Below, one piece after another: positions 30,075-62,135 of a DNA stretch of 64,000 nt; the first letter of the stretch is position 1, and each line of letters begins with the position of its first letter. The stretch spans positions 76,074,001 through 76,138,000 of the forward strand of contig OZ286468.1 in NCBI GenBank assembly GCA_965644265.1, in the 5' to 3' direction. The DNA comes from Glycera tridactyla (taxonomy: Eukaryota). The position numbers were made by a program, and so were the translations under genes. Under the pieces are notes generated by a model, which was given only the letters and a program-made list of their open reading frames with translations, was not told the origin of the DNA and did no database searches.

Positions 30075-30140
30075 GTTTGTTGATTGATGTGCACTGTTTA
30101 TAGTATACATATATATACACACACGGCGTTATGCTTGTAG

Positions 30141-33100: not shown

Positions 33101-35821
33101 GACTCTGAGTCAGCGATAGTATGCAAAGACTGCAATAAGCTTTGTTATTGTTCATATTGCTATGAGGAACACAAGCGTCTTCGTGGTAAGAAGAAGTCGT
33201 ATTCTATGTGTTCCAGGTCGTGGTTGTGTCCGCTCTGTAGCAGGACAGTTAACACAAAAACGAGGTCCAAGACCGATCACAAGTGTGGTGAGCACTTTTG
33301 CAGGAGGTGTTCCAGACACGTAGTTGGACGTCATCAGTGTTATATAAGACCTATTAAATCTAAAAGAAAGGGTGTTGTGAGCAAGAACGATATTTCGATG
33401 TATATTGCTTTCGACATCGAAACATGTCAAGATGACCTGTTCCAATGCTGTGAGGGTTACACTCCGCCTGAAAGATGTCAACTATGTCGTGAGCATTAGC
33501 TGCCGTGTGGAAAGTGTTTGAAATGTATGAAGTGCGGAAGTGCGAAGTGTGGAAGCTATGTGCACCAGGCGAATTTAGTTGTTGCTGAAAAATGGTGCAA
33601 GTATTGTCAGTCGATTACATTCTCGGATTCCGAATTCTGCACTCATTGTGGTGACAGGTGTGCCAAGTGCAGGGTTAGGAAGAGGAGTGGTAGTGGACTG
33701 CACGATTACAGGTCGCCATTTTGCAGTAACGGCAAGTGTGGAAGGAGGAGACTTTTTTTTTGGAATGTCTTGCTTGGGTGAATTTTGCGAGTGGATGTGT
33801 GCGGTAGCTCATTCTTATGCTACCGTTGTCAGTCACAACGGTAGCAGATTCGATCAGTATTTTGTGTTACATCAGCTACTGCAGTCACAGGTGAAGTTAC
33901 ATAAAGTAGTAGTAAACGGCGGCCAGCTACTTTTTGTGAAAGTTGGTCATCAGATACGAATCGTGGGGAATTTTTATCTGTTCCTTTGGCGAAATTACCG
34001 TCAATGTTCGAATTAACGTCGGAAATTGATGGTGAATTGTCCAAGGGGTATTTTCCTCATCTGTTCAACACGGTTGCCCGCTCTCAGGAGGGATATGAAG
34101 GGGAGTATCCATCGGAGGAAAGCTACAGTGTGGAATCTATGAAGCCGGGTCAGGTTGACATATTCCGGCAGTGGCTCGCGGACAAGCGTCAGAGCGGCCA
34201 TCTGTTCAACCTGAAGCGGGAGTTGGTTGCATACTGCACCAACGACACGACGATATTGCGTAAAGCTGTGATATCGTTTGACAAAGTGATATATGATTTG
34301 GCTGGTTTGCACCCCTTCCGAGAGTGCTTCATGATAGCCTCATTGGCCATGAAAATTTTCAGGAAAATATATATCACTGAGATGTTAACATGTACTGTTC
34401 GAGATAGGGATACTTCATCTGTCACCGAAGTTGGGGCGGTCAGACGAGATGGCATGTTGAAAATTGACAAAGGAAACGAGATGGTTCCAATTGCTGTTTT
34501 TCCAAATTTGGAGGTTGTGAAAGAGAAATTTGAACGAAGTTTTCTTGGAATAACTCCCCATTGTGGCTATCGAACCCAGGCAAAATTATTCAGTCGAAAG
34601 GCCTGCGCTTGGATGGAGTATGTCTCCCAGAAAGATGATATTTATATACTGCATGCCGGAAATAAGCAAGAGGTTTCCATCAGACGTTTTGACGGCAAGC
34701 TGTTCCATGTTGATGGATACTTTCCTGGGGCGGGTAACCCTGAACCGGACGTGAATGAGAGTGTGAGTGACGTTCCTGCAACTGCAGTCGTTTATAATTT
34801 TTTTGGCTGCTTGTGGCACGCTTGTGAGGAGTGTTATCCATCTGGTCGTGGCGACGTTCGATGCAAGAAGACAGGAAAAACGTTTAATGAGATGTATGCT
34901 TCTTCTCAGATCTATTTGAATGAATTGGCGACAGTCTGCTTGAATGTTGTAACTATTTGGGAGCATGAGTTTGATGATCTGATTGAGAACGATGAAGAAG
35001 CTGGTCGAATATATCGAACACTGGAAATCGATGAACCTCTAGATCCTCGCGATGCTTTTATGGGTGGCCGCGTGGAGAGTGTGAGATTACTGTGGTCGAA
35101 AGAAAAGGCTATCGATGGGGAGAGGGTGTCGTATTCTGACTTTTGTAGTTTGTATCCATTTGTGCAAAAGACTAAACCATTCCCCTGTTTTCATCCGGAA
35201 ATTAGGACCAGAAATTTTGGAAGCATAAGTAGTGTTGTGATAGCTGCGTTCGTGACTGGGTATGGGAGACACGAATTGCTGCAGGAGATGGAGCAGATTG
35301 GTGAGTCGCTCCTGTATACAGACACAGATAGTTTGATGTATGCATCGACCGACGGACAGTACGCTCCATCTCATGGGTGCTTTTTGGGTGACTTGACGCC
35401 GGAGATTCCTGAGGGCACTTCAATTGAAGAGTTTGTATGCACAGGCTCAAAAAGCTATGCTTACAAGCTATCCAATAAGGAGACTGTTCTCAAGTACAAA
35501 GGGTTCTCTGTGAGTCATGCTGCAGACAAGATACTGAATTTCGACTCTATGAAGCGGATGACTGAGTCGTATTTGGCAGGTGAACGCGGTCCCGACGGTG
35601 TTGTGGAGGTACCTCAAAGACAGATAAGGAGGGACAAAAAATCATTATCGATTATGACAGATAGAAATTTTAGTAAGAAATATCAGTTCACGGTAGATAA
35701 AAGAGTGGTGCTGCCAGATGGCTCGACTATCCCGTTCGGGTATAGAGGCAAGGATCTCGGTAAGATCAGGATAAGGGAGCAGGGGTGTGAAGATGAAATG
35801 GTAGACAAGGGTTCAAATTAA
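30141..35821 (+). pseudogene. polB: Protein-primed family B DNA polymerase with long spliced N-terminal extension; disrupted
   Basis: Present: N-terminal Polinton motif (NDNRLCLMRAI), Cys/His zinc clusters, ExoI FDIET, ExoII HNGSRFD, KGYFPHLFN, ExoIII YCTNDT, Vsr-like insertion (VDGY...GCLWHAC...IWEHEF), FMGGRVE, motif A DFCSLYP and motif C YTDTDS. Lesions: frameshifts at ~32210, ~33100, ~33760 and ~33990, stop at 33497-33499, and motif B region missing. Confidence 0.93.
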
Positions 35822-36589
35822 GTTGCTCTCTATCTTTCTACGCTCTCCGCAGCAATCAAGTATCTGTTTGTTGGGGTCCCACGCAATCTATTTCAGTCGA
35901 GCGATCCACACACCTCTATCTGTAACACATTTATATACACACACGCACTCAGACATCATGTGGGGTGAGATGTGCTACCTATCTCCGTGGTGCTATTGCT
36001 TTGCAACTTTATCCTCTTTCATCATAAGCTGCCCACAAGACATGCCGCCTTATAGGAATGCGGAGACGTTATCTGCTGACATAGTTTATGTTGGTGGAAT
36101 TGCTATCAACTATGACACAACTACGAGTGAGTATGAGGGAGGGCGTATGTACACGTTTGTTTGTTATATCCACCTGCTTCTGGAATGCACTCCAACTCAT
36201 AAATGTTCGCTGGGGTGTCTCTACAGTTGAGCTCAGTGGGCTGGTCGCGGGAGGGCGTTTGTAATATTATATTTATCAACGTGATAGAGCCAGAGAGATG
36301 GTGACCCAACCCCCCTCCCCCCTATTCGTGGTTGGTTAACATTGTGTGTGTGTGTGTGTGTTTGACGTAGCTTGGTATAGCGCGCGCCGCCACGATATCG
36401 AATGAGCAGATGTTGTCAATTAGTACTGTACATCGTTCAAGTCCCCCCTTCCATGAAACAGTCAATATATATTTTGTGTCCGAGGTCGTTGCTGATCAAC
36501 AGTTTGACAGTTGTAGGCACAAATGTGGAGCGGCACGCCTGGATGATACCCCAAGTGGTGCGCTCAGTTGTTTGATTCCGGATGTATGT

Positions 36590-36995
36590 TCACCACCACC
36601 ACCTGCACCACCACCACAATCTGCACCACCACCTGCACCACCACCACACACCATCACCTGCACCATCACCACAATCTGCCCCACCGCCACACACCATCAC
36701 CTGCACCACCACCATCAGCTGCACCACTACTGCCACCTGTACCACCACCACAATCTGTACCACACATCATCACCTGCACCACCACCACCACCCGCACCAC
36801 CACCACAACCCGCACCACCACCACAATCTGCACCATCACCACACACCATCACCTGCACCACCACCACACACCATCACCTGCACCACCACCACACACCATC
36901 ACCTACACCACCATCACCTGCACCACTACCACCTGCACCACCACCACACGCCATCACCACCACCACATACCATCACCTGCGCCACCACCAACTTG
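36590..36995. repeat. (CAC)-rich low-complexity tract built from CACCACCAC(A/C)/CACCTGCAC units
   Basis: Seen directly; it generates the His/Thr/Pro-rich ORFs in all three + frames. Confidence 0.92.
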
Positions 36996-37974
36996 CGATT
37001 CTCGCGCAGTATGAGACATCCTATCCATTCTTATGGCGGATTTGCTCATTTGTTAGTACGTCTATCCGTCTTTTCACAGATTTAACCTGCTCCCACGTCT
37101 CACTGTAGCAACACCTCGATTTTGCAGTGATCGTAGTTTTTTGTTTGTTTGTGTAATTGACTCCGCATGAGAATAATCTCTGTGTTATGTGTTGCCGCGG
37201 TTCGAACCGGCAGCAGGCTCGAGAGAACAATGAGGTGTCGGGCGGTTATGCGCAATGAAAGCGCCCATTCAGATTTACCAATTACCGAATCTTTTGTCAC
37301 TTCACAACGGGCAGCTGGATTTGTTATGTCGCGCATTCCGTTGCACCGCAGTGGGAGGGAACGAGTCTCATACATTCGATGAATTACGCATGTTTGTGAT
37401 TTTAGATCGGGCGAACAATGGAAGGCTCGGATAAACGTACGCGAAGCTTGATCTCGGTCATTGTATTCTCGAGTTGGACACCTGGATCTCATATGTCGCG
37501 ACATTCCACTTTCGCCGTTTCTTCCATACATACATTCATCCAGGCTCGCGTCGGCAAACACCCACCCTACTCCGTTGTTTATTACGGATATTGCGCAATT
37601 CCCACCCAGATACACCCATGTCCGTTTGTATGTCTGTCCATCCAGCTGGGTAACGGTCGGCCTGTTTGTGTGTCCGAGTGAGTTGATACTGGAACGTATG
37701 TCCATCTGCACTCGTGCCTGACCGAACATTTACGCCCGTTTGTATGTCAGCTTGTCCGACCAAACTTCGTTATATCGCTTTGTACTTCCGACCGGATCAT
37801 CCGCTCCCCATTATTGATTTGTGTGCTATATTGAGTGGTCGCGCTAGTAATATTAATAGAAGGTTCCAGTAACGGTGATGCCACAATGCCTCAGTCCGAT
37901 CACCACGGCTCGACACAAATACCAGGATTCGCAGGGAATGCCGAGCCGGGGGTCCAATATTGTCGGGTGCGGGA

Positions 37975-39110: not shown

Positions 39111-39335
39111 CATCGTCGTCGCGACGTGAGGTAGCCATTGTCCCACCACACCCGCTAGCGGAGCCCCCCCCCCCCGTCCGATCCATCAATCGCACAAGGT
39201 GGTCATTATCACATCGCACGGCGGATGGAGCATCCAATCATATAACCCACTCACGGATTCGATCGGCAATTCGTTTTATAGAACTCGTCGTCTAATCACA
39301 TGTACATCGATCATTCTTTTAAATTGTATTTCTTG

Positions 39336-42300
39336 TGTAATCCTTCCAATATGACAATGGAATTAAACCAGTCATCCGACAGGCTTGTAGGAGTATTCCC
39401 TCCTCTTCCTTAAGATGCAACCTTGGCAAGAAGTTTATATCTGATTAAATTACCATTATCAAGAACAGCAGGAAGCAATGTATAGGTTAACCGGGCTTTT
39501 ACCCCATTTATCCCAATGTCAAAATAAATGGCATTGCTCCTGTGGATCGATGTTCACAAAAATATATACGTTGTACTAAAAGATGTTAAAATGCGCGATC
39601 AGTATTACATGTTGAATCCCATTGTTTGCCAGCTCTAATGAAACCATAAATCTATAAAGACATCTCATCTATCACACAGGGAACTCAATTGTTGGTTCAA
39701 AAGTATAAGATGACACATAAATAGAGTTGTAGATACATATTTTAATTTGTATAAAGTTCACATAGTAGGTAGGTTGTAAATGATAGATCATAATTTGAAT
39801 GAAGCAATATAGATTATCACAGTATCAAGTAGACAAAAAGTCAGTTATACTCATGATGAAATAAATAAATTCATTTCAAATATTCAGATCTGAATTATAT
39901 ACATATATGACAAATATGGATGAACTCGTGTTACATAAATACCAGTGATACATCAGAATTATTCAACTCACGACATACTCATACACAGGATATTCATGGC
40001 CGAATGACAAAGTGAGGTACCTCAATGAGTTATACAAGTACACACTCAAATAGTCACAAGATTGAGCTCAAACCCTTTTATAGTACTATCTTCTTTCTTG
40101 TTCCATCGTTGACTTGGGCGCTTGAGAAGTGGCCACTGCAGCTAGCTAGAAATATAAACAAAGTCAGAGACACTGTGTCTAGATAGTTAGTGCACTTTAG
40201 ATATATGACTTTAAAAGTTTGGGTTAAAGACCCACGATGCAAGATCGACTTTAAAAGTTAATATAGTGGTGGCCACCTAGTTGCACATGTGATGACGAAC
40301 TTTGGTTATATATCCATATCAGCTAGAGAATGATGGTAGCTGATACTAGAACGTGTATCATAGATGGAAGTAGAAGTAAAGAGGAGACATCATTCCTCTC
40401 GAGTGAAGTAGCTTATCTCGTAAAGATAGCTAACAGCATCTCACCGTGTGAAGAGATTATGTCCTACACATTTCCCATGTGTATAGTGCGTTTAACACAC
40501 TAAAGAATATGTAGACGACGACTAGGCATATCCGCCTATATTAGTAGATTCCCATAAGCCCGGGAGGCGACGTGGGAATGGAGTGGCCTGAAGAGTACGC
40601 ACCTCTTCAATTTACGACATCTCAGACGCGTTGGTCGCTGCAAGAAGATAAAAAAAAGTCTCCTACCAACTTGTCCAAGTATCATAAAGAAAAGTTTTAA
40701 TTCAAAAAGTATCTTTAAACAACTCTAAGTTTTTATTTATGTTTGTTGCGTGCACTTAGTTACTTGCAGTTGCCAGATCTATTATAGTGGGAAAGCAGGA
40801 TCCCACTCTATTCCCCACTAACTAAATAGCATAAGAATTTAACTTACAAGTTACCATTGATCAAGTTACTAGAAATATTTCAACATTCAGTTGAAGAGAT
40901 TGTCAAAAGACAATCAGCAAGTATCACCGTTGAAAAGAAATCTCAATGCACTTAAGCCATTATCAACGGAGCAGGCACTGAGCCAACTAAGTTAATCTAT
41001 CAATGAACAAGGCATTAAAATATCATCAGCTGTATCAGAGAGAGCTAAGTTCACGGGAAAATGAACTAGAAAGGTGAACACACCAAGTCCTCTCTCAGTC
41101 AGCTGGGATCATGATGCAGCAGCAATACAGCGAAAAAGTTGAAGTCCAACTGTCTGCATGAAAAGAGCAAGCACGCTTTTCAAAATCAAAAATAGTTAAG
41201 TCCTCATCAAATCAAATTCAAAAATTTGAATAAATTCTAAATTAAGAATCCGAGATAGAGAAATCAATCTATTCAGAACAGGTGGTCTTTGTAGACAGTA
41301 TCAGATAGAGTCACCACTCACCGAAGCAAGAGGCAAGATCTGAAATCAACCCAAGTTCCCCCTCCCTTACACTGCGAGTATGACCTACCTAACATAGACC
41401 GGAACGCACTAAGTCACAGCTGCAACAGCAGCGGGGTCTAAGTTCCGATCTACCAAGTCCGTGCTAAGTTCGAATTCTAAAATTCACCAAATCCCAATTT
41501 CAACTCCTTTCAAGCCATTTGGTAATGTCTAAAGTCGAAATTAGTCATGTAATTCCAGAAATATAAGAGCGAAATGCATTTACATGCAGTCCCATATGTC
41601 ACAAACCTCAAACACAAATGTGCTTACTAGGTAAGACCATGAGTAAGTCCGGTAAGCACCGTGCTGAGTTTCAGTCAACGCGCTAAGTTCGCGCTGTCAA
41701 ATCACAAATAGCGCTAAAGCCAGCACACTGAAGTTCTATAAAAGCAATCCGCACATAACGAGAAACAATTCCGATCAATTCTAAAGCATCTAAAAGCTTT
41801 TATCCAAAAGTGAAAAAGTTTCAAACTTGTTGAAAAGTGTAAAGTGGATCGGAAGCTCAAAGTGAGGCTCATACATGTGGCGGATGGAAATCCAAAATGG
41901 CGGATTGTTTACATCTGACCGATCAGTCAGAAACAGCTGTTCATTCCAGAACGCTCAGAAAGTATCTCGGAGCTCAAATGACAGCGCATAGCAGCTTATT
42001 CATTACGAGAGCTAAACAATTACCAATATAGCCGTTTGAAGGTCTAAAATCAATCCAAAAGAATTTTCCTTCGAAAATACAGCCTAACGTGATGTCGCAG
42101 ATCATATAGACCAAAAATCTCAAGGTGGTCACATGTGACAGGTTGGTCTCAATACGGAGGTTCCCTAAAAAAAGTAGGTCACGGGATTTAGGGACATCAC
42201 ACAAGACTAAGCAAGCTTAGGACGGGTCCGTGCTTAGGATATACAGCGCTTAGGACAGAAATCAAGCTTATCAGAGTGGACCTTCTCCGAAAAAGTCTAA

Positions 42301-44508
42301 ATTCAGGCCGGGCACATGAATCACAAGCAGACACTACGTGTAAACAAAACAAGCCTCGGTTTGTCGTCTCCCCTACATGTCTATTACAAGTACGAGCACC
42401 AAAAACATTCCACCGGATCTTCAATTGACAAATACGACAGTTGTGGTCATAGAAATTGAAATACCATCAAACTAGCACTTGATCGTTTATAAACAAGCTT
42501 TTTGCAAGCCGAAATAAATTCAGAAAACTGAAATTGAAGCATATTTGATCGGTCAATTAATCGATTAATCGATCGGTTAACCGTCAAAGAATTCCAGATT
42601 TTCACACCATATGAACGACATTAGATTATTACCTTCTCAAAACAAGCCGTTTCAATGAAAATACGTTTTTCAATAAAGAATTTCACTCGGAAAAGAAAAG
42701 ATTGACTGGATCTCTATTCATATGATCAGGGAGCTAAAGAAAACAGATCAGCTGTGTGTGCTATTTACGAAACCAGCAGCAGAGTTCACCTTAGCGGTGA
42801 CCTGGTTAGTACACATGACAGCGAGCTGCCATTGTCATACCGAGATAGGCATGTTCATTTCAACTCAGCCCACATGGACTGGTAGAGTAGCCGGGTCTAA
42901 AAACACACAGATTCAGAGAGAAAAGACACAGTCGTCTCTGCTGATATTTCAACTGAAAATGATCTTACAGAAATATTCCTTTCACAATATTATTCCTATA
43001 GAGAAATCCCGTGAATATAATTGAATTTTGAATGATTCAATCATCTAATTCACACAGAAATCCGATATATTACACAAATGATCAGAATCTGATCGGTAGG
43101 AGCTATATTGAGACGTGTTAGCAGTTCATACACACAGCTTCTCTCACCCGGAGGATTCAGTGAGTCCAAGCGTTAAATACTATATTACAAATTCCTGCAT
43201 AGCCCTGTTCCACCCAAACAGGCGTACTGCACCGGGAACAACGCAGGAGGAACACGGCATAGTTCCACGCAGTTCCACTTGTTCCAAAATCACCGGAACA
43301 GCACAGGGAATTAACAGAAACAGATAGAACTACCAATATCCGCGAGAATTATCAGCTAGTTGTTTGGATCAGGACGGCATTTATGGAACAAAATCCTATC
43401 ATCCAAAATGATCCAAAATCATCCAAAAACATGCAAATTCTAGATTTTGACCACGTATGCTCGAAAGATGGTACATTCAATACAAAACACGGAAGATCCG
43501 ATGACATGAAATGGCATGATACTAAAAATGGCCATTTGGGCAATTGGGGAAAATGACTCCTAATAAAGCCTCCTAAAAGGATCCTAAAACATTTCTAAAT
43601 CTCATGAACACTTACTGGATGTAGTAGAGCTCAGGATGATGTAGTGGAGTCCATTGTTTCTATTCCAGTGCAGCGATACTGGAGAAGCAAGATGTTCTCT
43701 GCTCCCGACTCCCTCAGCTCCGGTGCGTACTCTTCAGGACAGAATTTCCAAGTGCCAGAACTCCTGTCTGGAATACTTTTATGTATCCGTCCTGAAGAGC
43801 CAGCAAAGAGCGGGAAAAAAGAGCGGGAGAAGCGATGTCAAGCTCCCCGAGTCAGCTACCTCGAAAGTATTCGCTCGAGACTTTTCTAGATCAATTACAG
43901 AAGATTTTCTGAGAAAACATGTACATTGCATGTACATTGCAGATCACTTTCCTCCTGCGCGACTCCGAGCTCCTCCTGCTCAGGGAGTCATTCACTATAC
44001 TGTGTGATCAACTATGTTGGCAAAAAACCGTCCGATAAACGGCCTATCCCACGGACTAACAAATTTGCCTCAAAAGATACAATTCCCATCTTCGGGATAT
44101 CTTTAGCCCTAATACAGATACGTATCGTGTAAAAATATGGTCTTCCTACGTCCATTATTCATGAAGATATCGCATTTCTACTGTTTCACCCTAGAAACAC
44201 TGCAAGCTGGGCACCCACCGCGAACGGCGATTCCACTGCGTGTAACTCGAACTCTAGTTGCCACACCAACAACCAGATAGGTGAAACAACGAATATTAGA
44301 AAACTAACAGGATTTCTACTGTTTTTCAACTAATAGAAGTGAAACTATCTCATGCTTCTGAAGTAGGAAGGAATAATTATCAATCTAGTAGCGTAAAAAT
44401 AGTGCCGCGGGCCTCAAAAGAGGAATTCCGCGAATTCCGCTACCAGAAATCCCTATATTGTTCATGTTATTCTAACAAACGTCACATGTTCAAAAACGTG
44501 GCGTTACA
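39336..44508 (-). repeat. 3' LTR (5173 bp)
   Basis: Colinear with 52681-57853 at a constant offset of 13345; nine substitutions found by eye. Confidence 0.97.
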
Positions 44509-44732: not shown

Positions 44733-45472
44733 CACTTGTATCCTTCGGGCTCTAAAGGAGCGCACCCTAGGCTAGATACCTTTCCAGCTTAGTAGCCGAC
44801 TAAGCCCTCCCTGCTTCTCAGAGACTACTTTTCATAATCTCCGATCACAGAGAGCACAGCTCGCAAAAGCTAACTGTGGCCTGACTGTACATTGAGCCAT
44901 CTTGAGAACAAAACCGGAAACTCAAGATGACCGGCTGGTGACCCAGTCGATAGCGATCAGGACATCTTGGTCACCCAAGAGCCCAACCGACGGTCTGATC
45001 CACTGTGGGTTCATGCCACCCGATGTTAGCTGAGCAGTAAACTTTGACCGTTTTCACCAGCCTTGCCTGTCACATACATACAGAACTAAAACTATAATGT
45101 ATGCGAGGTGTAGGTCGTCACCTACGTACCACACACAACCACTTATCAACATCGCAGATCATTTCTCGGGCATAGAAAAAGTTATCAAATGACAATACCA
45201 TAACTATACTTTAGTAGGTAAGTCATGGACTCCTTTTACATGTCATTTGAAGTGAAACCATTTTCCAGCAAAACAACCTACAACATCAACAGATCGGCCA
45301 ATGTGTCGACTAGACGGTACCACAGTACTATGTTAATACACAGTTCGTTAGACACGTGGGCCTTCAGTTTCTCCCAAGCACTATATCCACAAGTTTAACG
45401 TGCCCCCGGATCCTCACGGATCCACTGCCGCCTGTTCTAGGCACTCCTATAAGGAGCCTATCCCTCTTGAGT
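44733..45472 (-). ncRNA. Group I-like self-splicing intron A (740 nt, no ORF) in the retrotransposon 3' UTR
   Basis: Boundaries CUAGGU|ACUC...CAAGUG|CUCC. Guide GCCUAG (+ strand 45437-45442) pairs with the exon hexamer with a terminal U-G. Covarying hairpins and a P4/P6/P7-like core are shared with copy B. Confidence 0.75.
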
Positions 45473-47876
45473 ACCTAGGTGGAAAGCTTATTTACAATTC
45501 CATGAGAAGCAAAGGATCCTAAACCTCCAGAATAGGTCCCGCTGATCTAGTTTGTCTGTCTCCTTTCAACAGCCAGGAGATATATCCACCGTATCTATCT
45601 GGAGGTTTTCTCACCCTTTCCGGTTTTCTACGGGCGATTCCAGGTGGTGAAGCATTCACTACTTCAGTCTCTTCAGACAATGGTGAATCTGACGCAGAAT
45701 GATATTCTGTGTCAGGATTCAGATCAGACTCAGTATCTTCGTCATGAGCGTCAATCTCATCAGAATTCTCAAGAAGAGGATTTTGGGCCTCTTCAATATC
45801 AATTCCAGCTTCCACAACACTGGTTTCTGACTGAGATCTAGCTGGGGTGGACTCTAAATCCTCACCTAAATGTTGGTCTACATTTGGCTGAATTTGTCCT
45901 GGTTCAGCATGTTCAGGATGATCGGATTCAATTTGAGCTGTTGGAGACAAATCACTAGCAGATGGAGTTGTTACCACTACATATTCTTCGTCCTCAAATG
46001 AATCAGAATCACAGCCCTCAGAGCTATCTTCCAATTGACCTTTTTGTTCTGAAGCACGGGTTCGGTATCGAGATTTTTGGCCAGGTTGTATAACTGTACC
46101 AGCATCTTTACTCACCGTGTCTTCAGCAAAGAGCTGAACTATATCCTCACTTATACCCTTTTCATCTAGAACCACATGAGTTTTCAAATATTTTCTATCA
46201 AAATCTTCAATAGATTTTAACATATCAATATGTAAAACTCTGTGAGGTTTTCTTGGCCTAGACAAATTCTTTAACTCATATACTCTGTTCTCGTTATCTG
46301 CCAATCTTACGACTTCATAAACTTCGGGCAACCAGGTTGGGGCTAGCTTGTGCATCCCTTTGATACCAACGTTCTTAACAAGAACTTTGTCACCAACTTT
46401 GAGTATACACGATTTAACTTTTTCATCATATCTATACTTGTTAGACATGTGAGAAAAGTCTTGACTCTGGCTAGCAATGGTTTGGACAAATTCCAACCTA
46501 GACTTCAAAGCTTCTACGTATTGTTTGAGATTATCATATTTCCTATCCTCAGGATAAGTTCCTAACATGACATCTACTGGTAGACGACTCTTCCTTCCAA
46601 ATATAAGTTCGAAAGGTGAGAACTTGGTGGAGGAGTGGATTGAGCTATTATATATGTTGGTTAAATGCCCTAAATATTTACTCCAAGAGCAAATTTTCTG
46701 TGTGGACATTGTGCCAACCATGTCAATCAAGGTACGATTGAATCTTTCGCAAATGGCATCACTCCTAGGTGAATACGGGCAAGTAAACACCTTTTTGATA
46801 CCAAGTAAATGACAAAGTTGGTCAATTACTTGCGATTCAAAATTTCTGCCTCTGTCAGATAAGAGCTTTTCAGGCAAGCCAAAGATGTCAAAAACTTTCT
46901 CTACCAGAGCTTTAGCGACCGTGGTGGCGGTCTCATTCTTGGTGGGTATAGCAAAAGCATATTTGCTAAACACATCAGTTACAATCAACACATGGCCAAA
47001 TCCATGTTTATCCATATCCAAGGATAGATAATCCATGGATAGGACTTGGAAAGGTCGTTGAGCTGCAACTTCACCTAACATGCCTTGTTTAGAGGGAGAA
47101 GTCTTTTTCAATAGACACTCTTTGCAAGCAGAGATATATTCTGTGATAGCTTTAACATGTCCAGAAAGATAAAATCTTCTCTGGAAAAATTTGACTACCC
47201 TCTCTACTCCAAAATGGCTCATCATTCAGAGCATGTAAAACTTGGGGCAAACACTTGTGGGGCAAAATAATCAAAAGGTATTCAAATCCTTCGATTTCAG
47301 TTCTTTTGCACAATACCCCTTCTGAATTAAAAACTAACCTATCTCGGAAGTAGAAAAGCTTCCTATATTTCTTTGGAAAGTCTTTAGGCTTACAAGGTCG
47401 CCGTTTGTACATGTATTGAATCACTAGATTCAAATCAGAGTCCTTGAGTTGTTCAGTTCTCCAGTCAAAAGACTGGGAGTCACTTGAGACACCAAAACTT
47501 GACGCGTCTAAATTACCTACATTTACATTTTCAATCAATGGAGTGGTTTCTGAAGACAGCTCCGAAGAGTGCTCAACCACTTGATCAGGTGTCTCATGTA
47601 GTCTAGACAATACATCAGCGTCGACATTGACCGGTCCAGGCTTGTAATGTATGGTGAAATCATAGTCTCCAAGGGCAGCAAGCCATCTCTGAGATGTAGC
47701 ATCAACCTTGAGAGATCTATGTATATACGTGAGAGGGTTATTATCAGTGTATACCTTAAATGGGTGGCCATATAAATAAAAGTTAAATTTATCGACTACA
47801 GCCCACTTGAGCCCAAGAAACTCAAGTTTGTATACAGGATAATTTTTCTCAGTATCTTTAAGAGATCTAGAAGCAT

Positions 47877-48657
47877 CACTTGTATCCTTCGGGCTCTTCC
47901 AAAAAAGCGCACCCTAGGCTGGATACCTCTCCGACCTAGCGGCCCATCCAAGGACGCCAACTAGGCCCTCTCTGCTTCCCAAAGACTACTTTTCATAGCC
48001 TCGATCACAGAGAGCACAGCTCGCACAATTGCTTACTGTGGCCTGACTGTACATTGAGCCATCTTGAGCATCAAAGTCTTCAAGATGACCGGCTGGTGAC
48101 CCAGTCGATAGCGATCAGGACATCTTGGTCACCCAAGAGCCCAACCGACGGTCTGATCCACTGTGGGTTCATGCCACCCAATGGAAACTGAGCAGTGAAC
48201 TTTGACCGTTTTCACCAGCCTTGCCTGTCACATACACCTTACCAAAATTGGACTCATAGAGTTCAAGGATGCATGCTAGGTGTGGACGGTAATCCACGTA
48301 CCACATGTGACCACTTATCTCAGTAGACTAACCAATACCATCCGTGAGCAAGTTATCAGACGCAATACCAATAACTAGACTGCAAAAATCTTAATTCACA
48401 GCCAGCCTGGACCAATTTTACATGCCATCTGAATAAGCCAACCTTACTCACGGAGGACAGTCTACCCAACGGACAGCCCGATCAACATGCCGACTAGACG
48501 GTACCAGAGTACTGTGTCAATTCACAGTTCGTAAGACACGGGGATCTTCAGTATCATCCCAGCACTATATCCTGGAGTTTAACGTGCCCCTAGACCTTTG
48601 CAGGTCCACTCCCGCCTGTTTTTGCCACCCTTTATGAGGAGCCTATCCCTCTTCAGT
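47877..48657 (-). ncRNA. Group I-like self-splicing intron B (781 nt, no ORF) in the RNase H coding region
   Basis: Boundaries UUUGCU|ACUG...CAAGUG|AUGC. Removal restores TGC TAT GCT TCT AGA (C-Y-A-S-R). Guide GGCAAA (+ strand 48621-48626) pairs with the exon hexamer with a terminal U-G. Confidence 0.8.
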
Positions 48658-50811
48658 AGCAAACAGGATGCAACAGATTCTTGTCACCAAATTGCAACAA
48701 AACAGCCCCCAGTCCTGTGGTACAAGCATCTACATGCAAAATAAAAGGTTTCTCTAAATCTGGGAATGCTAACACCGGGGGATGGGTGAGTAGTTCAATC
48801 AGCTTCTCACGAGCTTCTTGACATTCCTCGTCCCAATCTTCTACCACAGAGTGCTGTAAAGCAGGCTGTTTCACAGGAGGTCCAAACTTACTTTTGGGCT
48901 TATACTTGACCCCTTTTAAAAGACGTAACAAAGGTTGAGCTATACTGCTATAGTGAGGGATATGCCTCCTAAAAAATCCAGCAAATCCTAAGAAACTCAT
49001 GACATCTTTTACTGTTCTGATAACAGGCCAATCCTGTAAAACTTTAGTTTTTTCAGGATTGCACATCACACCTTTATCAGAGATGATATAGCCAAGATAA
49101 ACTATCTCCTGGGACGCCAAGGTACACTTGCCAGGGTGTATCTTGAGACCAGCTTCACGCATAAGAGTGAGAGCTCTGGACAAAAGTTCCAGATGTTCCT
49201 CCATAGTGCGGCTAAAAATAATGACATCATCAAGAAAACAAATACATCCCTCATAAAGCATTGGTCTGAGGATGTTCTCCATGCAACGTTGAAAAGTTGC
49301 AGCAGAAGTCTTAGCCCCCTGAACCATGCGATTGTATTCATACAATCCAAAAGGTGTAGAGAAAGCAGTCTTCTCTTTATCCCTCTCCTCGATTTCGATA
49401 TTATAGTACCCGGATCTTATATCCATTTTGGTAAAAAAAGTATTACCAGCCAGGTAGGGTAAAATATCGTCAAAACGAGGGAGAGCATAACAGTCCCTCA
49501 CTGTTTTATCATTGAGATGTCTTAAATCAGTCACCATCCTAACTCTCCCATCTGGTTTTTGCAAAAAAATAGGAGCACTAGAATAAGGAGACACTGAAGG
49601 TCGTATGATACCTTTCTCCAGTAACTGATTTAAATGATCTTTAGCAGCAGCATACATCTTTGGAGGTAGATTTCTGTGTCTGACCTTAAACGGAATATCG
49701 TCTGACAAATTGTACCCATGTTTCACACCCTCTACTTTTCCAATATCATAGTCTGACTTAGAGAAAGTAGCTAGATTATCTTGAAGACAAGCTTCAAGAC
49801 TTTCCTTCTCTAGATCAGACAAATGGGATAAACTATCTACATGGTCCCACAGAAGTTTAATATCAGGTGATATTTCTTCTTCCTCATCCTCTCCTAGTGT
49901 AGTTTTAAACTGGTCGACATCGTCAACCCCCTCAAACTCAGAAAGGTTTAGTCGAGTAGCATGCACTCTGACATCATCCGAGGCTAATTCAAAAGGTATA
50001 GTTGAAAGTGATACTACACCAAAATCATTTCCTTTGCAGACAGTATAAACAGTAGAAGAAGTATTATGTACAGGCACATGAACTGTTGACAAGGAAGCTA
50101 AATTAGCATCAAGCACAACTGGAGTCTTCATCAAAAAGTCATTGTTTGGTTCAATCAAAATTGCCGCATTTATGCCTACTAATTTAGATCGAAATTTTAA
50201 TTTAACAATTGATGTTTGACCTGGAAGAATGGATATATCTTGTGCCACTTTGGCACTACCCAAAAATCCGTTTGAAATGCTTTCAGCTTGTTGAACCTTG
50301 ACGAAAGAATTATATACAACATCTAAAATAGAACTATGTGACGGATGTTGGCAGTTATTTAAATACCAGAATTTCTCAATGGCATTCATGCCTACAAGAC
50401 ACATATGGTTCTGAAAAGTGAAATCAAAACCACAATTGTCTTTCAGCACTAAAAATAATACATGTGTGCCTTCATTAGTTCCGGACAATCTCTTGCCCAT
50501 TGTCACAAAAAGTTCCACAGCTCCAACATATTGTAGGGCTTCCCCATTAACTTGATTCACTCTCAACAATGAAGACACAGGTTGTAGCGGAACATAAGAA
50601 AAATATTTCCGATACAGTCCTTCATTTATGAGTGAAACTTGACTTCCAGTGTCAATTAATGAAGAAATAACAGCTCCATTCAATAAAATGTTATGAATGT
50701 TTTGCTTGCCAACTAAAAACGGTGGTAGAGTAAATAAGCTTGAAACATGTACATCAATGGGTGGACCAGCATCATCTCCGGAGAAAGAATGGTCCAGTTC
50801 TTTCTCTGGGA

Positions 50812-52215
50812 TTAGTTTCCCTGCTGATTCTGAGAGGCTAAATAAGCTGCTCGTTGCTGACGCATGCGAGAAAACATCTTGCTTTCATCCCAATCTATAG
50901 AACAAGTCTTAGCTACATGGCCTTTCTCCCCACAATTATAACATATAGCTTTCTCTAACCATTTAGGTTTCCACTAGGGTTTCACACCATCATGTGAAAA
51001 CAGAGGTTTCTCAGTGGCAGCACTAGCTGCAGCTACGACTGGAGTTTTGCCAGATAGTTGTAAACTCTTCGGGTTCTGAACTACTTGGTCTATCTGACCG
51101 GACAATTTCTTAGAAGCAGATCTAATGTCATACAAAATGTCACTATGTACAGGAGTAGATTTGATGGAAGGGTTGGAAATGGCTAAAGCAGCTAAACTAG
51201 TTTCTTCCTCAACAGAATTAACATAATCTAAAAAAGATAGGTTAATTGAAGAAACAGAAGCTGTCTTCTTGTTTCTCATACACCTCCTCTTGCGCTCCTT
51301 ACTTTCCCTCTCAAAAGCTTGCAACTGAGTACTAAAATCTTGGTACCCAGGATATTTGTCAAGGTCTTTGAGTTTGAACTCAGAAGTGATCATAAAGTGA
51401 TCAGTGGACTGTAACCCTCTAAGAAAATAATGTATTAGAGACTGGTTCACATCAGCAAAATACTTAGGATCTACTCTCACCATTTCTGATATAATATCAT
51501 CTATCCTAGACAAGAAATCAGATGGAGATTCAGTGACTTCCTGAATACAGTCCATCAGCCTATCGACTAGATGGGAAATACTGTCTGAAGCACCATAAGT
51601 GATCGCTATCTTATTCACTAAGGCAGCACTGGTCTCTATTGCCCTAGCAGCTCTCAAAGCTTTCCCTGTTAAACTGAGTCGCAATGTTTTCAGTTTCTCC
51701 TTCTCGGAAATATCGGCATCGTTCATGACATGTTCATTGGCCAACAACAGCCATTCTTCCACCGTACATTCCCCAGAGCCAGGTTTGTCCCTACCCGAGA
51801 ACTTCTTCAAACCTCAATAATGAGCAGTAGCTTCAGGTTTGGGTGATCGTGGTGTTGTGGGTGCAGGTGGTGTCTGAACAATGGTAGTTGAAATGATTGC
51901 ATCCTTTCGAAGCTGTTCGACAAAAGAGACATGATAAGCATCATTTCCTAGAATGATACAATCATTGTCATCTAACACGTCACAATTCTTATCGAAGGCT
52001 ACATGATCTCGCGAGTGGATCAACAAACAATTGCAAGGTTCAGCCACAGTGTCATAGATAAGAAAAAGGTCAAAATCTACGAATATAGTCCCTACCAACT
52101 TGGTGGTAGCAGCTTTCCAATCTGGATCAGCAGCTACAGGCACTGGGTACCTTTCAATCACCATGCAATAATAAGGGGGAATATTCAACCTTTTGCAAGC
52201 CACGTCAGGATCCAT
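50812..52215 (-). pseudogene. gag: gag (PNMA-like capsid with C-terminal CCHC zinc knuckle), two in-frame stops
   Basis: One frame from 52215 to TAA at 50812. It contains Y*GLKKFSG (TGA at 51814-51816), EEWL...EKEKLKTLRLSLTGKAL, TAG at 50974-50976, then CYNCGEKGHVAKTC. Confidence 0.92.
50815..50821 (-). promoter_or_regulatory. -1 ribosomal frameshift slippery site G GGA AAC at the gag-pol junction
   Basis: An X XXY YYZ heptamer sits immediately before the gag TAA. The -1 frame is open (GKLIPEKELD...) into the protease LIDTGSQVS. Confidence 0.85.
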
Positions 52216-52660: not shown

Positions 52661-52678
52661 ATCCCGGACGAGCCCCCA
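52661..52678 (-). promoter_or_regulatory. Primer-binding site for tRNA-Pro
   Basis: The - strand reads TGGGGGCTCGTCCGGGAT, the 18-nt complement of the tRNA-Pro 3' end (same as the MuLV PBS), 2 nt from the LTR. Confidence 0.95.
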
Positions 52679-52680
52679 TG

Positions 52681-55600
52681 TGTAATCCTTCCAATATGAC
52701 AATGGAATTAAACCAGTCATCCGACAGGCTTGTAGGAGTATTCCCTCCTCTTCCTTAAGATGCAACCTTGGCAAGAAGTTTATATCTGATTAAATTACCA
52801 TTATCAAGAACAGCAGGAAGCAATGTATAGGTTAACCGGGCTTTTACCCCATTTATCCCAATGTCAAAATGAATGGCATTGCTCCTGTGGATCGATGTTC
52901 ACAAAAATATATACGTTGTACTAAAAGATGTTAAAATGCGCGATCAGTATTACATGTTGAATCCCATTGTTTGCCAGCTCTAATGAAACCATAAATCTAT
53001 AAAGACATCTCATCTATCACACAGGGAACTCAATTGTTGGTTCAAAAGTATAAGATGACACATAAATAGAGTTGTAGATACATATTTTAATTTGTATAAA
53101 GTTCACATAGTAGGTAGGTTGTAAATGATAGATCATAATTTGAATGAAGCAATATAGATTATCACAGTATCAAGTAGACAAAAAGTCAGTTATACTCATG
53201 ATGAAATAAATAAATTCATTTCAAATATTCAGATCTGAATCATATACATATATGACAAATATGGATGAACTCGTGTTACATAAATACCAGTGATACATCA
53301 GAATTATTCAACTCACGACATACTCATACACAGGATATTCATGGCCGAATGACAAAGTGAGGTACCTCAATGAGTTATACAAGTACACACTCAAATAGTC
53401 ACAAGATTGAGCTCAAACCCTTTTATAGTACTATCTTCTTTCTTGTTCCATCGTTGACTTGGGCGCTTGAGAAGTGGCCACTGCAGCTAGCTAGAAATAT
53501 AAACAAAGTCAAAGACACTGTGTCTAGATAGTTAGTGCACTTTAGATATATGACTTTAAAAGTTTGGGTTAAAGACCCACGATGCAAGATCGACTTTAAA
53601 AGTTAATATAGTGGTGGCCACCTAGTTGCACATGCGATGACGAACTTTGGTTATATATCCATATCAGCTAGAGAATGATGGTAGCTGATACTAGAACGTG
53701 TATCATAGATGGAAGTAGAAGTAAAGAGGAGACATCATTCCTCTCGAGTGAAGTAGCTTATCTCGTAAAGATAGCTAACAGCATCTCACCGTGTGAAGAG
53801 ATTATGTCCTACACATTTCCCATGTGTATAGTGCGTTTAACACACTAAAGAATATGTAGACGACGACTAGGCATATCCGCCTATATTAGTAGATTCCCAT
53901 AAGCCCGGGAGGCGACGTGGGAATGGAGTGGCCTGAAGAGTACGCACCTCTTCAATTTACGACATCTCAGACGCGTTGGTCGCTGCAAGAAGATAAAAAA
54001 AAGTCTCCTACCAACTTGTCCAAGTATCATAAAGAAAAGTTTTAATTCAAAAAGTATCTTTAAACAACTCTAAGTTTTTATTTATGTTTGTTGCGTGCAC
54101 TTAGTTACTTGCAGTTGCCAGATCTATTATAGTGGGAAAGCAGGATCCCACTCTATTCCCCACTAACTAAATAGCATAAGAATTTAACTTACAAGTTACC
54201 ATTGATCAAGTTACTAGAAATATTTCAACATTCAGTTGAAGAGATTGTCAAAAGACAATCAGCAAGTATCACCGTTGAAAAGAAATCTCAATGCACTTAA
54301 GCCATTATCAACGGAGCAGGCACTGAGCCAACTAAGTTAATCTATCAATGAACAAGGCATTAAAATATCATCAGCTGTATCAGAGAGAGCTAAGTTCACG
54401 GGAAAATGAACTAGAAAGGTGAACACACCAAGTCCTCTCTCAGTCAGCTGGGATCATGATGCAGCAGCAATACAGCGAAAAAGTTGAAGTCCAACTGTCT
54501 GCATGAAAAGAGCAAGCACGCTTTTCAAAATCAAAAATAGTTAAGTCCTCATCAAATCAAATTCAAAAATTTGAATAAATTCTAAATTAAGAATCCGAGA
54601 TAGAGAAATCAATCTATTCAGAACAGGTGGTCTTTGTAGACAGTATCAGATAGAGTCACCACTCACCGAAGCAAGAGGCAAGATCTGAAATCAACCCAAG
54701 TTCCCCCTCCCTTACACTGCGAGTATGACCTACCTAACATAGACCGGAACGCACTAAGTCACAGCTGCAACAGCAGCGGGGTCTAAGTTCCGATCTACCA
54801 AGTCCGTGCTAAGTTCGAATTCTAAAATTCACCAAATCCCAATTTCAACTCCTTTCAAGCCATTTGGTAATGTCTAAAGTCGAAATTAGTCATGTAATTC
54901 CAGAAATATAAGAGCGAAATGCATTTACATGCAGTCCCATATGTCACAAACCTCAAACACAAATGTGCTTACTAGGTAAGACCATGAGTAAGTCCGGTAA
55001 GCACCGTGCTGAGTTTCAGTCAACGCGCTAAGTTCGCGCTGTCAAATCACAAATAGCGCTAAAGCCAGCACACTGAAGTTCTATAAAAGCAATCCGCACA
55101 TAACGAGAAACAATTCCGATCAATTCTAAAGCATCTAAAAGCTTTTATCCAAAAGTGAAAAAGTTTCAAACTTGTTGAAAAGTGTAAAGTGGATCGGAAG
55201 CTCAAAGTGAGGCTCATACATGTGGCGGATGGAAATCCAAAATGGCGGATTGTTTACATCTGACCGATCAGTCAGAAACAGCTGTTCATTCCAGAACGCT
55301 CAGAAAGTATCTCGGAGCTCAAATGACAGCGCATAGCAGCTTATTCATTACGAGAGCTATACAATTACAAATATAGCCGTTTGAAGGTCTAAAATCAATC
55401 CAAAAGAATTTTCCTTCGAAAATACAGCCTAACGTGATGTCGCAGATCATATAGACCAAAAATCTCAAGGTGGTCACATGTGACAGGTTGGTCTCAATAC
55501 GGAGGTTCCCTAAAAAAAGTAGGTCACGGGATTTAGGGACATCACACAAGACTAAGCAAGCTTAGGACGGGTCCGTGCTTAGGATATACAGCGCTTAGGA

Positions 55601-57853
55601 CAGAAATCAAGCTTATCAGAGTGGACCTTCTCCGAAAAAGTCTAAATTCAGGCCGGGCACATGAATCACAAGCAGACACTACGTGTAAACAAAACAAGCC
55701 TCGGTTTGTCGTCTCCCCTACATGTCTATTACAAGTACGAGCACCAAAAACATTCCACCGGATCTTCAATTGACAAATACGACAGTTGTGGTCATAGAAA
55801 TTGAAATACCATCAAACTAGCACTTGATCGTTTATAAACAAGCTTTTTGCAAGCCGAAATAAATTCAGAAAACTGAAATTGAAGCATATTTGATCGGTCG
55901 ATTAATCGATTAATCGATCGGTTAACCGTCAAAGAATTCCAGATTTTCACACCATATGAACGACGTTAGATTATTACCTTCTCAAAACAAGCCGTTTCAA
56001 TGAAAATACGTTTTTCAATAAAGAATTTCACTCGGAAAAGAAAAGATTGACTGGATCTCTATTCATATGATCAGGGAGCTAAAGAAAACAGATCAGCTGT
56101 GTGTGCTATTTACGAAACCAGCAGCAGAGTTCACCTTAGCGGTGACCTGGTTAGTACACATGACAGCGAGCTGCCATTGTCATACCGAGATAGGCATGTT
56201 CATTTCAACTCAGCCCACATGGACTGGTAGAGTAGCCGGGTCTAAAAACACACAGATTCAGAGAGAAAAGACACAGTCGTCTCTGCTGATATTTCAACTG
56301 AAAATGATCTTACAGAAATATTCCTTTCACAATATTATTCCTATAGAGAAATCCCGTGAATATAATTGAATTTTGAATGATTCAATCATCTAATTCACAC
56401 AGAAATCCGATATATTACACAAATGATCAGAATCTGATCGGTAGGAGCTATATTGAGACGTGTTAGCAGTTCATACACACAGCTTCTCTCACCCGGAGGA
56501 TTCAGTGAGTCCAAGCGTTAAATACTATATTACAAATTCCTGCATAGCCCTGTTCCACCCAAACAGGCGTACTGCACCGGGAACAACGCAGGAGGAACAC
56601 GGCATAGTTCCACGCAGTTCCACTTGTTCCAAAATCACCGGAACAGCACAGGGAATTAACAGAAACAGATAGAACTACCAATATCCGCGAGAATTATCAG
56701 CTAGTTGTTTGGATCAGGACGGCATTTATGGAACAAAATCCTATCATCCAAAATGATCCAAAATCATCCAAAAACATGCAAATTCTAGATTTTGACCACG
56801 TATGCTCGAAAGATGGTACATTCAATACAAAACACGGAAGATCCGATGACATGAAATGGCATGATACTAAAAATGGCCATTTGGGCAATTGGGGAAAATG
56901 ACTCCTAATAAAGCCTCCTAAAAGGATCCTAAAACATTTCTAAATCTCATGAACACTTACTGGATGTAGTAGAGCTCAGGATGATGTAGTGGAGTCCATT
57001 GTTTCTATTCCAGTGCAGCGATACTGGAGAAGCAAGATGTTCTCTGCTCCCGACTCCCTCAGCTCCGGTGCGTACTCTTCAGGACAGAATTTCCAAGTGC
57101 CAGAACTCCTGTCTGGAATACTTTTATGTATCCGTCCTGAAGAGCCAGCAAAGAGCGGGAAAAAAGAGCGGGAGAAGCGATGTCAAGCTCCCCGAGTCAG
57201 CTACCTCGAAAGTATTCGCTCGAGACTTTTCTAGATCAATTACAGAAGATTTTCTGAGAAAACATGTACATTGCATGTACATTGCAGATCACTTTCCTCC
57301 TGCGCGACTCCGAGCTCCTCCTGCTCAGGGAGTCATTCACTATACTGTGTGATCAACTATGTTGGCAAAAAACCGTCCGATAAACGGCCTATCCCACGGA
57401 CTAACAAATTTGCCTCAAAAGATACAATTCCCATCTTCGGGATATCTTTAGCCCTAATACAGATACGTATCGTGTAAAAATATGGTCTTCCTACGTCCAT
57501 TATTCATGAAGATATCGCATTTCTACTGTTTCACCCTAGAAACACTGCAAGCTGGGCACCCACCGCGAACGGCGATTCCACTGCGTGTAACTCGAACTCT
57601 AGTTGCCACACCAACAACCAGATAGGTGAAACAACGAATATTAGAAAACTAACAGGATTTCTACTGTTTTTCAACTAATAGAAGTGAAACTATCTCATGC
57701 TTCTGAAGTAGGAAGGAATAATTATCAATCTAGTAGCGTAAAAATAGTGCCGCGGGCCTCAAAAGAGGAATTCCGCGAATTCCGCTACCAGAAATCCCTA
57801 TATTGTTCATGTTATTCTAACAAACGTCGCATGTTCAAAAACGTGGCGTTACA
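52681..57853 (-). repeat. 5' LTR (5173 bp)
   Basis: Followed on the - strand by CA and then the PBS. Confidence 0.97.
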
Positions 57854-59074
57854 CTTGCGCAACACAGATCAATGTTATGAGAGACCAACCCCCCCCCCCC
57901 CCCTTTAAACCGGACGTTACTCTCACGCACCACAAACACTAGGGTCCCCCCCCCTGATCAATATTCGCGGTAATGGAGTCGACGAGATGCGGTATCACAA
58001 GCTGACCGCTTACGCGAGCAACGTGATTAGCGACAAATTGCGTGTTAACCCGATCCCCACCCATATTGCGGAACCTGCCGTTTATTTATGTTTTATTCAT
58101 ACGCATATACTCGCATTCCGGCCGCCGTTGTAGGGTTTCTATTTCTGCGCATATTACTCATGTCGCGCGAAGGACAACCGCCGCCTCATATCCCATGCGT
58201 ATTCACATCCCGGTCGTCCGAATATTTTATATCTCATATATATCGCAAGCGTGCAAAGGACGGTCGACGCCGTACATATCCATACGCCCGCTTTCTGATC
58301 GGCGTCCGTAGCTGTTTTTTTTTGCTTATGTTTATATTCATATCTCACAAGCGAGAGAGAAACGAGCGGCAATGTCGCTCCGACAGGGAGACCTTTTCCA
58401 CGAAGGCCCAAATTCTGTGCCTGCACCGCGTCCTCCGCGAGGCGAGGCGAGAGTGCGTCCCAGGACATCCAAAGGGGGCCGACGGAAGTCGTATCGCGGC
58501 AAGACGAGCCGAAGCCCAGATTTGGTGCCTGTATCGTGTCCTATTGCGAGGAGCCTCCACGAGGGGGCGAACCCAATCTAGAGCGCTGTATCATTATTGG
58601 ACGGCATCGTATTATATCGCCGTATTATATATATATAACGATTGAACGGTCGATGAATATCTAATGTCCTCTCGACACCGAATCGGTCATTCCGGACACG
58701 TATATATATATATGTGTAAACAGACCATCGTCTTGTTATCGCGAAGAAAGGAGGCGGGAAGAAGAAGGCCGCAATCGATAGCCGTCCGTCCGACCACCGG
58801 ACAGGGACAGCGCTTGATCGAATGTACGACGGGAGAATAGTCCGCTGCGGAGGACACGCTGAAAGCCGTGATGAAAGTTGTCGACGCGCGACAGCTACGA
58901 CCTCTCAGGGGGATAATCTGGAATCCGCGATGCGAGAGTCGTCCGCGAGGGCGGACACGAAGAAGAAGGAGGAGGACACTCCGGTCGGTTTGCGGCGGGC
59001 GCCTTGCGCCGACGTCCGGATCCGGACGCCGGGGCGCCCCCCCTTCCGGCCCGGGGGGATGCACCCAATCCTTT

Positions 59075-61658: not shown

Positions 61659-62135
61659 CTACCTGTGCCTCGCGAATTGGAGCACGCAAGTCGTGTGCTT
61701 GGTGAAGGCCCCGTCACCGGGTATGGGTTTCAGCTCCTGGCTGACTAGCCGTATGCGCATCCGCTTCAGTTCCGACCTCACGACTCTGGCCTCTATCCGC
61801 GTGGCGAACTCGTGATGAAATACCTGCTCGCCCTCCGCCTCGGGCGTGGGCAGTGAGAACGCGTTCAGGAGAGGGAGTTTGGCCTCTCGGACGAACGAGC
61901 AGTCAACAAAGTCGCATATCACATAGACCGGGGAAGGCAGTTCCACGGGCGGCTCGCCCTCTATTTGCACGGGGGGAGAATAGAACGATAAAATAGATGA
62001 CAGTGAACATGTCCAGCAGCCCGGAAGGGAGAGCAGTCCCGGAAGTTCCACAGTGAAATCGGTCGGCGAGTTCTCGCCGCAACCCTCCACGGGTTCAGAC
62101 CCGCTGGACACCACGATCACGTACTGCCTCTCCAT
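61659..62135 (-). CDS. Polinton minor capsid (penton-like) protein
   Basis: ENSPTDFTVELP..L.L.G.W...L, VYVICDFVD.S.V.....PLL and C-terminal beta-rich RIRL...VLQF. Its ATG overlaps the integrase stop (TGATG). Confidence 0.82.
   Translation of the reverse strand: MERQYVIVVSSGSEPVEGCGENSPTDFTVELPGLLSLPGCWTCSLSSILSFYSPPVQIEGEPPVELPSPVYVICDFVDCSFVREAKLPLLNAFSLPTPEAEGEQVFHHEFATRIEARVVRSELKRMRIRLVSQELKPIPGDGAFTKHTTCVLQFARHR

Follow-up and report, generated by a model that had tools for sequence, protein, structure and literature searches.

Why does an intron that lies outside any coding sequence keep a perfect guide for its own splice site? The question is raised by intron A, a 740 nucleotide (nt) sequence on the minus strand (positions 44733–45472) of a 64,000 nt stretch of contig OZ286468.1 from Glycera tridactyla. 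The whole stretch is referred to here as the window and positions are window positions. Intron A is a predicted group I ribozyme without an open reading frame (ORF) and is found in the 3' untranslated region (UTR) of a Ty3/Gypsy retrotransposon. A related sequence, intron B (781 nt, positions 47877–48657, minus strand), is 76% identical to A and interrupts the pol region of the same element. The original prediction, made from the sequence of the window, proposed that A is a recent independent invasion, or that its splicing is selected for intron mobility or for RNA structure near the plus-strand priming region. It missed that A and B are two of approximately 3,000 copies at many sites. The explanation that best accounts for this family, with a probability of roughly 0.78, is guide-directed reverse splicing of an ORF-less RNA with a predicted group I fold into the RNA of one Gypsy clade, where the element reverse transcriptase and integrase would fix the insertion.

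Intron A and its insertion site

The ends of intron A are exact, since 30 of 30 natural copies retrieved by the 5' flank alone are precisely intron-less, with position 45473 joined directly to 44732. Precisely 740 nt are also missing at site A in public contigs. The final base of the intron is a G (44733). The site is 46 nt downstream of the pol stop codon (45519–45521) and 224 nt from the start of the 3' long terminal repeat (LTR; 44508), close to the predicted distance of about 220 nt. Four natural empty copies show stops in all three frames 2–19 nt before and 6–74 nt after the rejoined site, so the assignment of A to non-coding sequence was correct.

The P1 helix has 10 base pairs (positions 45478–45469 with 45446–45437). 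Its 5' strand (45469–45478) consists of the last six exon bases and the first four intron bases, and its 3' strand (45437–45446) is the internal guide, with the variable hexamer at 45442–45437. At the 5' splice site, U45473 forms a wobble pair with G45442. The perfect guide is thus as predicted, and the match is far beyond chance. Intron B likewise has a U.G wobble at its 5' splice site and a guide that pairs with its own exon, and this intron interrupts the RNase H profile between profile positions 35 and 36.

There is no ORF in the introns, the longest ATG frames being 57 amino acids (A) and 45 amino acids. No nuclease or transposase is therefore encoded, as would be the case in an endonuclease-encoding homing intron or an IStron. 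A spliceosomal or group II intron was considered and rejected; the ends are AC...TG, and are neither GT-AG nor GUGYG...AY.

Copy number, host range and occupancy

Two independent core motifs have 3064 and 3042 matches in the 2.04 Gb genome (207 contigs), and controls have none. This gives approximately 3,000 intron copies. The examined sample comprises 98 copies, of which three are in locus L061 and 95 come from the first 100 places listed on contig C1. Parsing succeeded for 91 of these, and the other seven were excluded because their ends are atypical or damaged. Leaving out two internal units of tandem arrays gives 89 rows. Both flanks map on the window's element in 72 of the 89 rows and all 72 introns are in the sense orientation. 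The insertion is precise in 65 of the 72, i.e., the flanks are adjacent to the base and nothing is duplicated or deleted. The loci that were unmapped or excluded are also within the same Gypsy clade, as judged by Gypsy reverse transcriptase, RNase H, protease or integrase flanks (Pfam) or by LTR and UTR matches to related subfamilies. All 98 examined introns are inside this one clade, and 15 of 16 further copies were placed there as well (L304 is unplaced).

The insertion sites are diverse. The 86 copies ordered by position occupy 54 sites, of which 36 were encountered once, with a Chao1 estimate of about 119. Such sites are present in gag, pol, the LTRs and both UTRs, and every codon phase is represented. 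The 3' UTR has 13 intron copies at 10 different positions in about 270 nt.

Presence and absence across copies of the element, proposed originally as a check, show that both introns are optional. Site A is occupied in 158 and empty in 3742 of 3900 copies (4.1% occupied), and site B is occupied in 166 and empty in 3126 of 3292 copies (5.0%). A tree of the upstream flanks of 30 occupied and 43 empty site A copies has the two classes interleaved with 15 changes of state, at least five of which are forced by well-supported branches; recombination could inflate the number of changes. No bootstrap tree groups the occupied copies together. This tree has one misaligned row (L133) and long branches for L038 and three occupied rows, and its empty copies over-represent the window's subfamily. 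Site A has repeatedly gained or lost its intron, and the proposal of a recent independent invasion is supported by these data.

Guide and exon pairing

Pairing between guide and exon was compared over 71 distinct site/guide combinations. All six positions are paired in 55 of them. At positions -2 to -6 there are 4.66 pairs out of five, as compared with 2.18 when guides are shuffled among sites, and none of 5000 shuffles reaches the observed value. Guide and exon also co-vary within a single site: the 30 site A copies have 4.57 of five Watson-Crick pairs versus 3.73 after shuffling (0 of 5000), and 24 of the 30 are fully paired. The target sites have no common sequence beyond the pairing with their own guide. 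A G.U pair is present at the 5' splice site in 50 of the 71 combinations. Loci L062, L085 and L147 have a guide of 7 nt.

There is no significant relaxation of the guide at non-coding sites. Full pairing is found in 39 of 49 combinations at coding sites and 16 of 22 at non-coding sites (p=0.55), and a comparison of site A with site B gives 24 of 30 versus 28 of 30 (p=0.25). Matching is alike at the two types of site, therefore the perfect guide of A is the norm of the family and no coding explanation is needed. This supports the suggestion that splicing is kept for intron mobility.

The predicted P10 pairing of GGAG with the 3' exon CUCC did not hold up. It needs a register shift of one base, and P10 pairing is not above shuffles in any of three registers over the 71 combinations. 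Exon base +2 alone is enriched for P10-type pairing relative to background composition, but the signal is weak.

Secondary structure of the intron core

Intron A folds far better than shuffled sequence (z = -8.4, 20 shuffles). Its conserved center can be drawn as P3-P4-P5-P6-P7-P8 with a P3/P7 pseudoknot and a bulged G-site. On the minus strand, positions 44933–45062 include P3 (45062–45054 with 44941–44933), P4 (45051–45046 with 44995–44990), P5 (45042–45035 with 45005–44998) and P6 (44989–44982 with 44961–44954). Positions 44882–44950 include P8 (44932–44921 with 44906–44895) and the predicted P7 pseudoknot, in which 44950 and 44948–44944 pair with 44887–44882 and C44949 is bulged. The predicted G-site pair, G44948-C44883 in P7, was assigned from the established group I architecture, as outlined in excerpts of PMC3679873.

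An alignment of 26 non-redundant members, picked out of 167 cores, supports this model. In the core helices P3–P8, 93.6% of cells are paired, as compared with 22–43% in slid controls. Thirteen of the 49 core pairs are altered on both sides, and the covariation score is reached by none of 500 shuffles. The two-sided changes are located in P4, P5, P6 and P8. The P7 U-A pair, the bulged C and G44948-C44883 are invariant in 26 of 26 members, which were selected by a motif containing this G. The parser demanded a terminal G, and the count of 89 of 89 is thus not independent evidence; the ends at the 3' splice site are fixed independently by the flank adjacency in 65 of the 72 mapped insertions. A short P5 extension may resemble the simpler scaffold of IE introns. 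An additional hairpin of about 30 nt is present directly before the terminal G in L063, L071, L094, L118, L126, L138 and L150.

The feature is real, and by its testable structural properties, as modeled here, it is a predicted group I intron.

Traces of passage through RNA

Four elements have introns at the same position in both of their LTRs (L064/L065, L015/L017, L091/L092 and L116/L117), as is expected from reverse transcription of an intron-bearing RNA. Two independent loci contain exact head-to-tail intron trimers, L130 (positions 965–3292 of that locus, minus strand) and L283/L284 (34–2253). The units are full-length and the terminal G is fused exactly to base 1 of the next unit. Only four such joints are matched genome-wide with one motif, and a search with the longer 3'-end variant gave none. 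The trimer joint is the same as the joint of a full-length intron circle, as described in excerpts of PMC6274462. It may alternatively come from renewed reverse splicing at a 5' splice site that already holds an intron; either route would need ribozyme chemistry. Both the introns shared by two LTRs and the exact trimers suggest that the intron has passed through RNA and been reverse transcribed. In a 2-Gb genome, strict sense orientation and restriction to a single clade are consistent with RNA as the target but not with transposition as DNA.

Proposed mechanism and alternative explanations

In the reverse-splicing model, the intron would excise from the retrotransposon RNA, and the excised intron would reverse-splice into element RNA wherever the 6-nt guide pairs. 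The reverse transcriptase and integrase of the element would then fix the inserted intron in DNA, and reverse transcription of spliced element RNA would result in precise intron loss. Reverse splicing probably takes place in or near the element particle, which would explain the strict host range. A perfect guide in a non-coding UTR would be present because it is the guide that selects the site, and spreading continues only for copies able to leave and re-enter; the coding needs of the element would play no part in its maintenance. Guides likely diversify by point mutation under selection for pairing, and recombination between copies would reshuffle the intron bodies. Catalysis, reverse splicing, its location and loss through reverse transcription of spliced RNA are the steps that we infer.

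Several observations weigh against this model. The intron sample is drawn mostly from one contig. At site A the intron and flank distances are correlated (Spearman 0.56, Mantel p=0.001), therefore vertical inheritance contributes too. The G.U pair is absent from the splice site in 21 of the 71 combinations, seven of which have C-G. Between intron bodies of 97% or higher identity at different sites, 3.75 of the six guide positions are different, as many as between unrelated pairs; stepwise mutation can explain this only with recombination added. P3 and P7 are nearly invariant, and they are supported by complementarity but not by covariation, partly because the motif used to find members covers these helices. 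There is no Rfam match for the intron at the gathering score, at E 1 or at E 10. The Rfam group I model is poorly sensitive to some subgroups, and an Rfam match is a criterion of the library and not a defining property of group I introns. Lastly, exon joins across A and B are present in public contigs (8 of 24 listed sequence runs, all contigs, with the library type mostly unknown or guessed), but a spliced RNA is indistinguishable from an empty DNA copy (96% of copies at A). The joins are uninformative on splicing because most DNA copies are empty, and low depth inside the introns in these contigs is no evidence of splicing.

The difference in guides between near-identical bodies is also what would be expected if, at insertion or at reverse transcription, the guide took on a new sequence templated by the target across the P1 hairpin, such that the intron could enter almost any site. 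This process is unlikely, although guide divergence (0.59) does stand out from that of adjoining segments (0.12–0.17). Copying would place an A opposite the exon-final U, yet a guide G is found there in 50 of 50 combinations, and G.U wobbles and mismatches persist at other guide positions. The same guide is kept at imperfectly matched new sites (compare L116 with L145 and L064 with L061), and such unchanged guides favor target choice over templated rewriting. Divergence increases in a gradient up to the 5' end, which is expected from, and points to, recombination between intron copies. One sublineage with Watson-Crick pairs even at the splice site (C-G, U-A, G-C; sites equivalent to window positions 51813, 47812 and 50636; L305, L306, L307 and L310) keeps templated rewriting alive as a minority explanation.

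A second possibility is that the insertions are old and inherited, and have spread only through recombination of co-packaged RNAs. There would be splicing and loss but no new sites, and the guides would be under purifying selection for splicing. The mosaic intron bodies are compatible with this, as are the intron-flank correlation at site A and the occupied copies in the flank tree, which are clustered more than under shuffled labels. It is nevertheless quite improbable. Singletons make up 36 of the 54 sites, and bodies that are 98% identical are found at different sites in subfamilies that are only about 70–75% identical to the window's element. Exact-joint trimers are impossible by recombination between single copies, and 3,000 copies would decay under steady splicing loss without gain.

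Precise insertion without target duplication could also be produced by a non-autonomous transposon acting on DNA (IS200/IS605- or IStron-like, or by endonuclease homing), with the intron fold as a passenger; IStrons do combine a group I intron with DNA transposition, according to excerpts of PMC13521648. The introns are without an ORF, terminal repeats or stem ends typical of such transposons were not noted, the targets share nothing beyond pairing with their own guide, and the sense-only orientation and bias to one Gypsy clade in a 2-Gb genome largely refute this very improbable explanation. The proposed retention of A as a structure serving the element near its plus-strand priming site can draw on the density of 3' UTR insertions, but it has almost no standing, in that 3742 of 3900 copies (96%) are without A, the 3' UTR introns vary in position and their density is explained by the low cost of insertion in non-coding sequence.

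Relatives in DNA of other organisms

A 26-nt core motif is present in 61 metagenome loci, with 68–80% identity in the longer matched parts. In the largest group of these loci, the intron is at a fixed site of one short repeat and has a matching guide. The 5' joint is found in 17 loci, the 3' joint in 23 and a natural empty site in nine. The repeat may be SINE-like (short interspersed element), as it is short, repeated and non-coding. L161, L163, L182, L186, L202 and similar loci have a shorter relative at a fixed site in a short interspersed repeat of another eukaryote, with natural empty sites nearby. In L187 (positions 1–1626), a relative interrupts the end of an ORF with a zinc-knuckle-like motif; this motif and a weak atlas lead suggest that the host is possibly a LINE (long interspersed element). 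Relatives with high G+C content are found in L159, L167, L173, L190, L198, L204 and L209; their P6 and P8 insertions are longer, and several have different guides that match different exons.

Pfam analysis covered 76 of the 157 flank frames, and no metagenome locus was assigned a retroelement domain. A search of prokaryote genomes for the family gave no matches. Viral contigs gave four short-motif matches, none with intron homology, which are attributed to chance.

It is likely that these sequences together represent a class of ribozyme-only hyperparasites, i.e., group I introns that have departed from ribosomal DNA (rDNA) into animal and other eukaryote nuclear genomes, act there as guide-targeted RNA transposons in retroelements and use the reverse transcriptase and integrase of the host element. 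The host would be an LTR element here, and a short interspersed repeat and possibly a LINE elsewhere.

The host element and other features of the window

The host element is on the minus strand and has the features of Ty3/Gypsy elements: LTRs, a target site duplication, a primer binding site, gag, and the order reverse transcriptase, RNase H, integrase. The 3' LTR (39336–44508) is 5173 nt and has nine differences from the 5' LTR (52681–57853). A 4-bp target duplication (39332–39335 and 57854–57857) flanks the element, which is young. The primer binding site is at 52661–52678 and is presumably tRNA-Pro-like. A PNMA-like gag and a pol with reverse transcriptase, RNase H and integrase are encoded at 45519–51813. 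In the copy in the window, the gag region is interrupted by a stop and the reading frame is broken between RNase H and integrase. The nearest named relatives of its Pol are mollusc and fish Gypsy proteins. The genome itself is that of an animal, with 43 matches to Wnt exons, and the named sequences closest to its Wnt5 are from molluscs. The element is often found in tandem arrays with a spacing of about 11.8 kb (e.g., L044–L046 and L031/L032), consistent with shared 5.2-kb LTRs.

Other features of the window are not part of this element. In positions 1–24000 a unit of about 8.1 kb, with 27-nt repeats inside it, is present three times in tandem, and the frames tested there gave no Pfam match. 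Fragments at 29136–37108 (plus strand) include a type B DNA polymerase domain (33905–35821) and possibly represent a Polinton-like element. An integrase with a chromodomain at 62135–63007 (minus strand) is in a GC-rich stretch and represents a second, chromovirus-like element.

Relation to known systems and significance

Nuclear group I introns are stated in excerpts of PMC3679873 and PMC8395846 to be confined to rRNA genes of protists and fungi. The same excerpts describe nuclear rDNA introns of the IC1 and IE types, such as Tetrahymena Tth.L1925 and Didymium Dir.S956-1, which share with the present family a P1 U.G wobble, a P3-P7 pseudoknot, a G-C G-site, a P4-P6 scaffold and a terminal G; the scaffold may resemble the simple one described there for IE introns. 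Unlike the rDNA introns, this family is in an animal retrotransposon, in both coding and non-coding sequence, with approximately 3,000 copies at more than 50 sites and no Rfam match. ORF-less rDNA introns that spread by reverse splicing likewise have no endonuclease, and their new sites share only 4–8 nt of guide pairing (PMC1299323, in the parts available). Their spread is rare and deduced from trees according to that source, whereas here the target RNA carries its own reverse transcriptase and integrase.

Three other systems are comparable in part. IStrons, as presented in excerpts of PMC13521648, are also group I introns that silence a mobile element at the RNA level at many sites, but they are bacterial, encode TnpA/TnpB and move as DNA, whereas this family encodes nothing. 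Group I introns are also present in nuclear mobile elements outside rDNA in the polinton-like viruses of cryptophytes and green algae; these are DNA viruses of protists. In their main described cluster the introns keep to a fixed gene position, and there is no link to reverse transcriptase in the available parts of PMC12220804. Retrozymes are non-coding ribozyme RNAs that borrow the reverse transcriptase of Gypsy retroelements, and their circular templates give multimers. They are small self-cleaving ribozymes that integrate as separate elements, with no guide-chosen splicing into the helper RNA, as far as excerpts of PMC7761336 describe them.

A search of mostly non-subscription literature found no report of group I introns in LTR retrotransposons or in animal nuclear DNA. 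The host and inferred life cycle of the family are without precedent in the literature searched. Borrowing of a retroelement reverse transcriptase by a ribozyme RNA that forms multimers is also known from the Neurospora VS RNA on the Varkud retroplasmid, which is self-cleaving.

The full pathway of reverse splicing, reverse transcription and integration is stated in the available parts of PMC3679873 to lack experimental evidence. Intermediates of this pathway appear to be fossilized in DNA here. Approximately 3,000 intron copies reside in the nuclear genome of an animal, within an RNA that supplies its own reverse transcriptase and integrase, and the long-open question of reverse splicing is therefore directly testable. 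If the proposed mechanism is true, the family would represent a natural high-copy case of the complete pathway. As Rfam misses the family, it is probably hidden in the repeat annotations of other genomes. It also supplies dozens of natural pairings of guide and target on a single ribozyme scaffold, some of them at splice sites that lack G.U, and this collection bears on ribozyme specificity and RNA-targeting tools.
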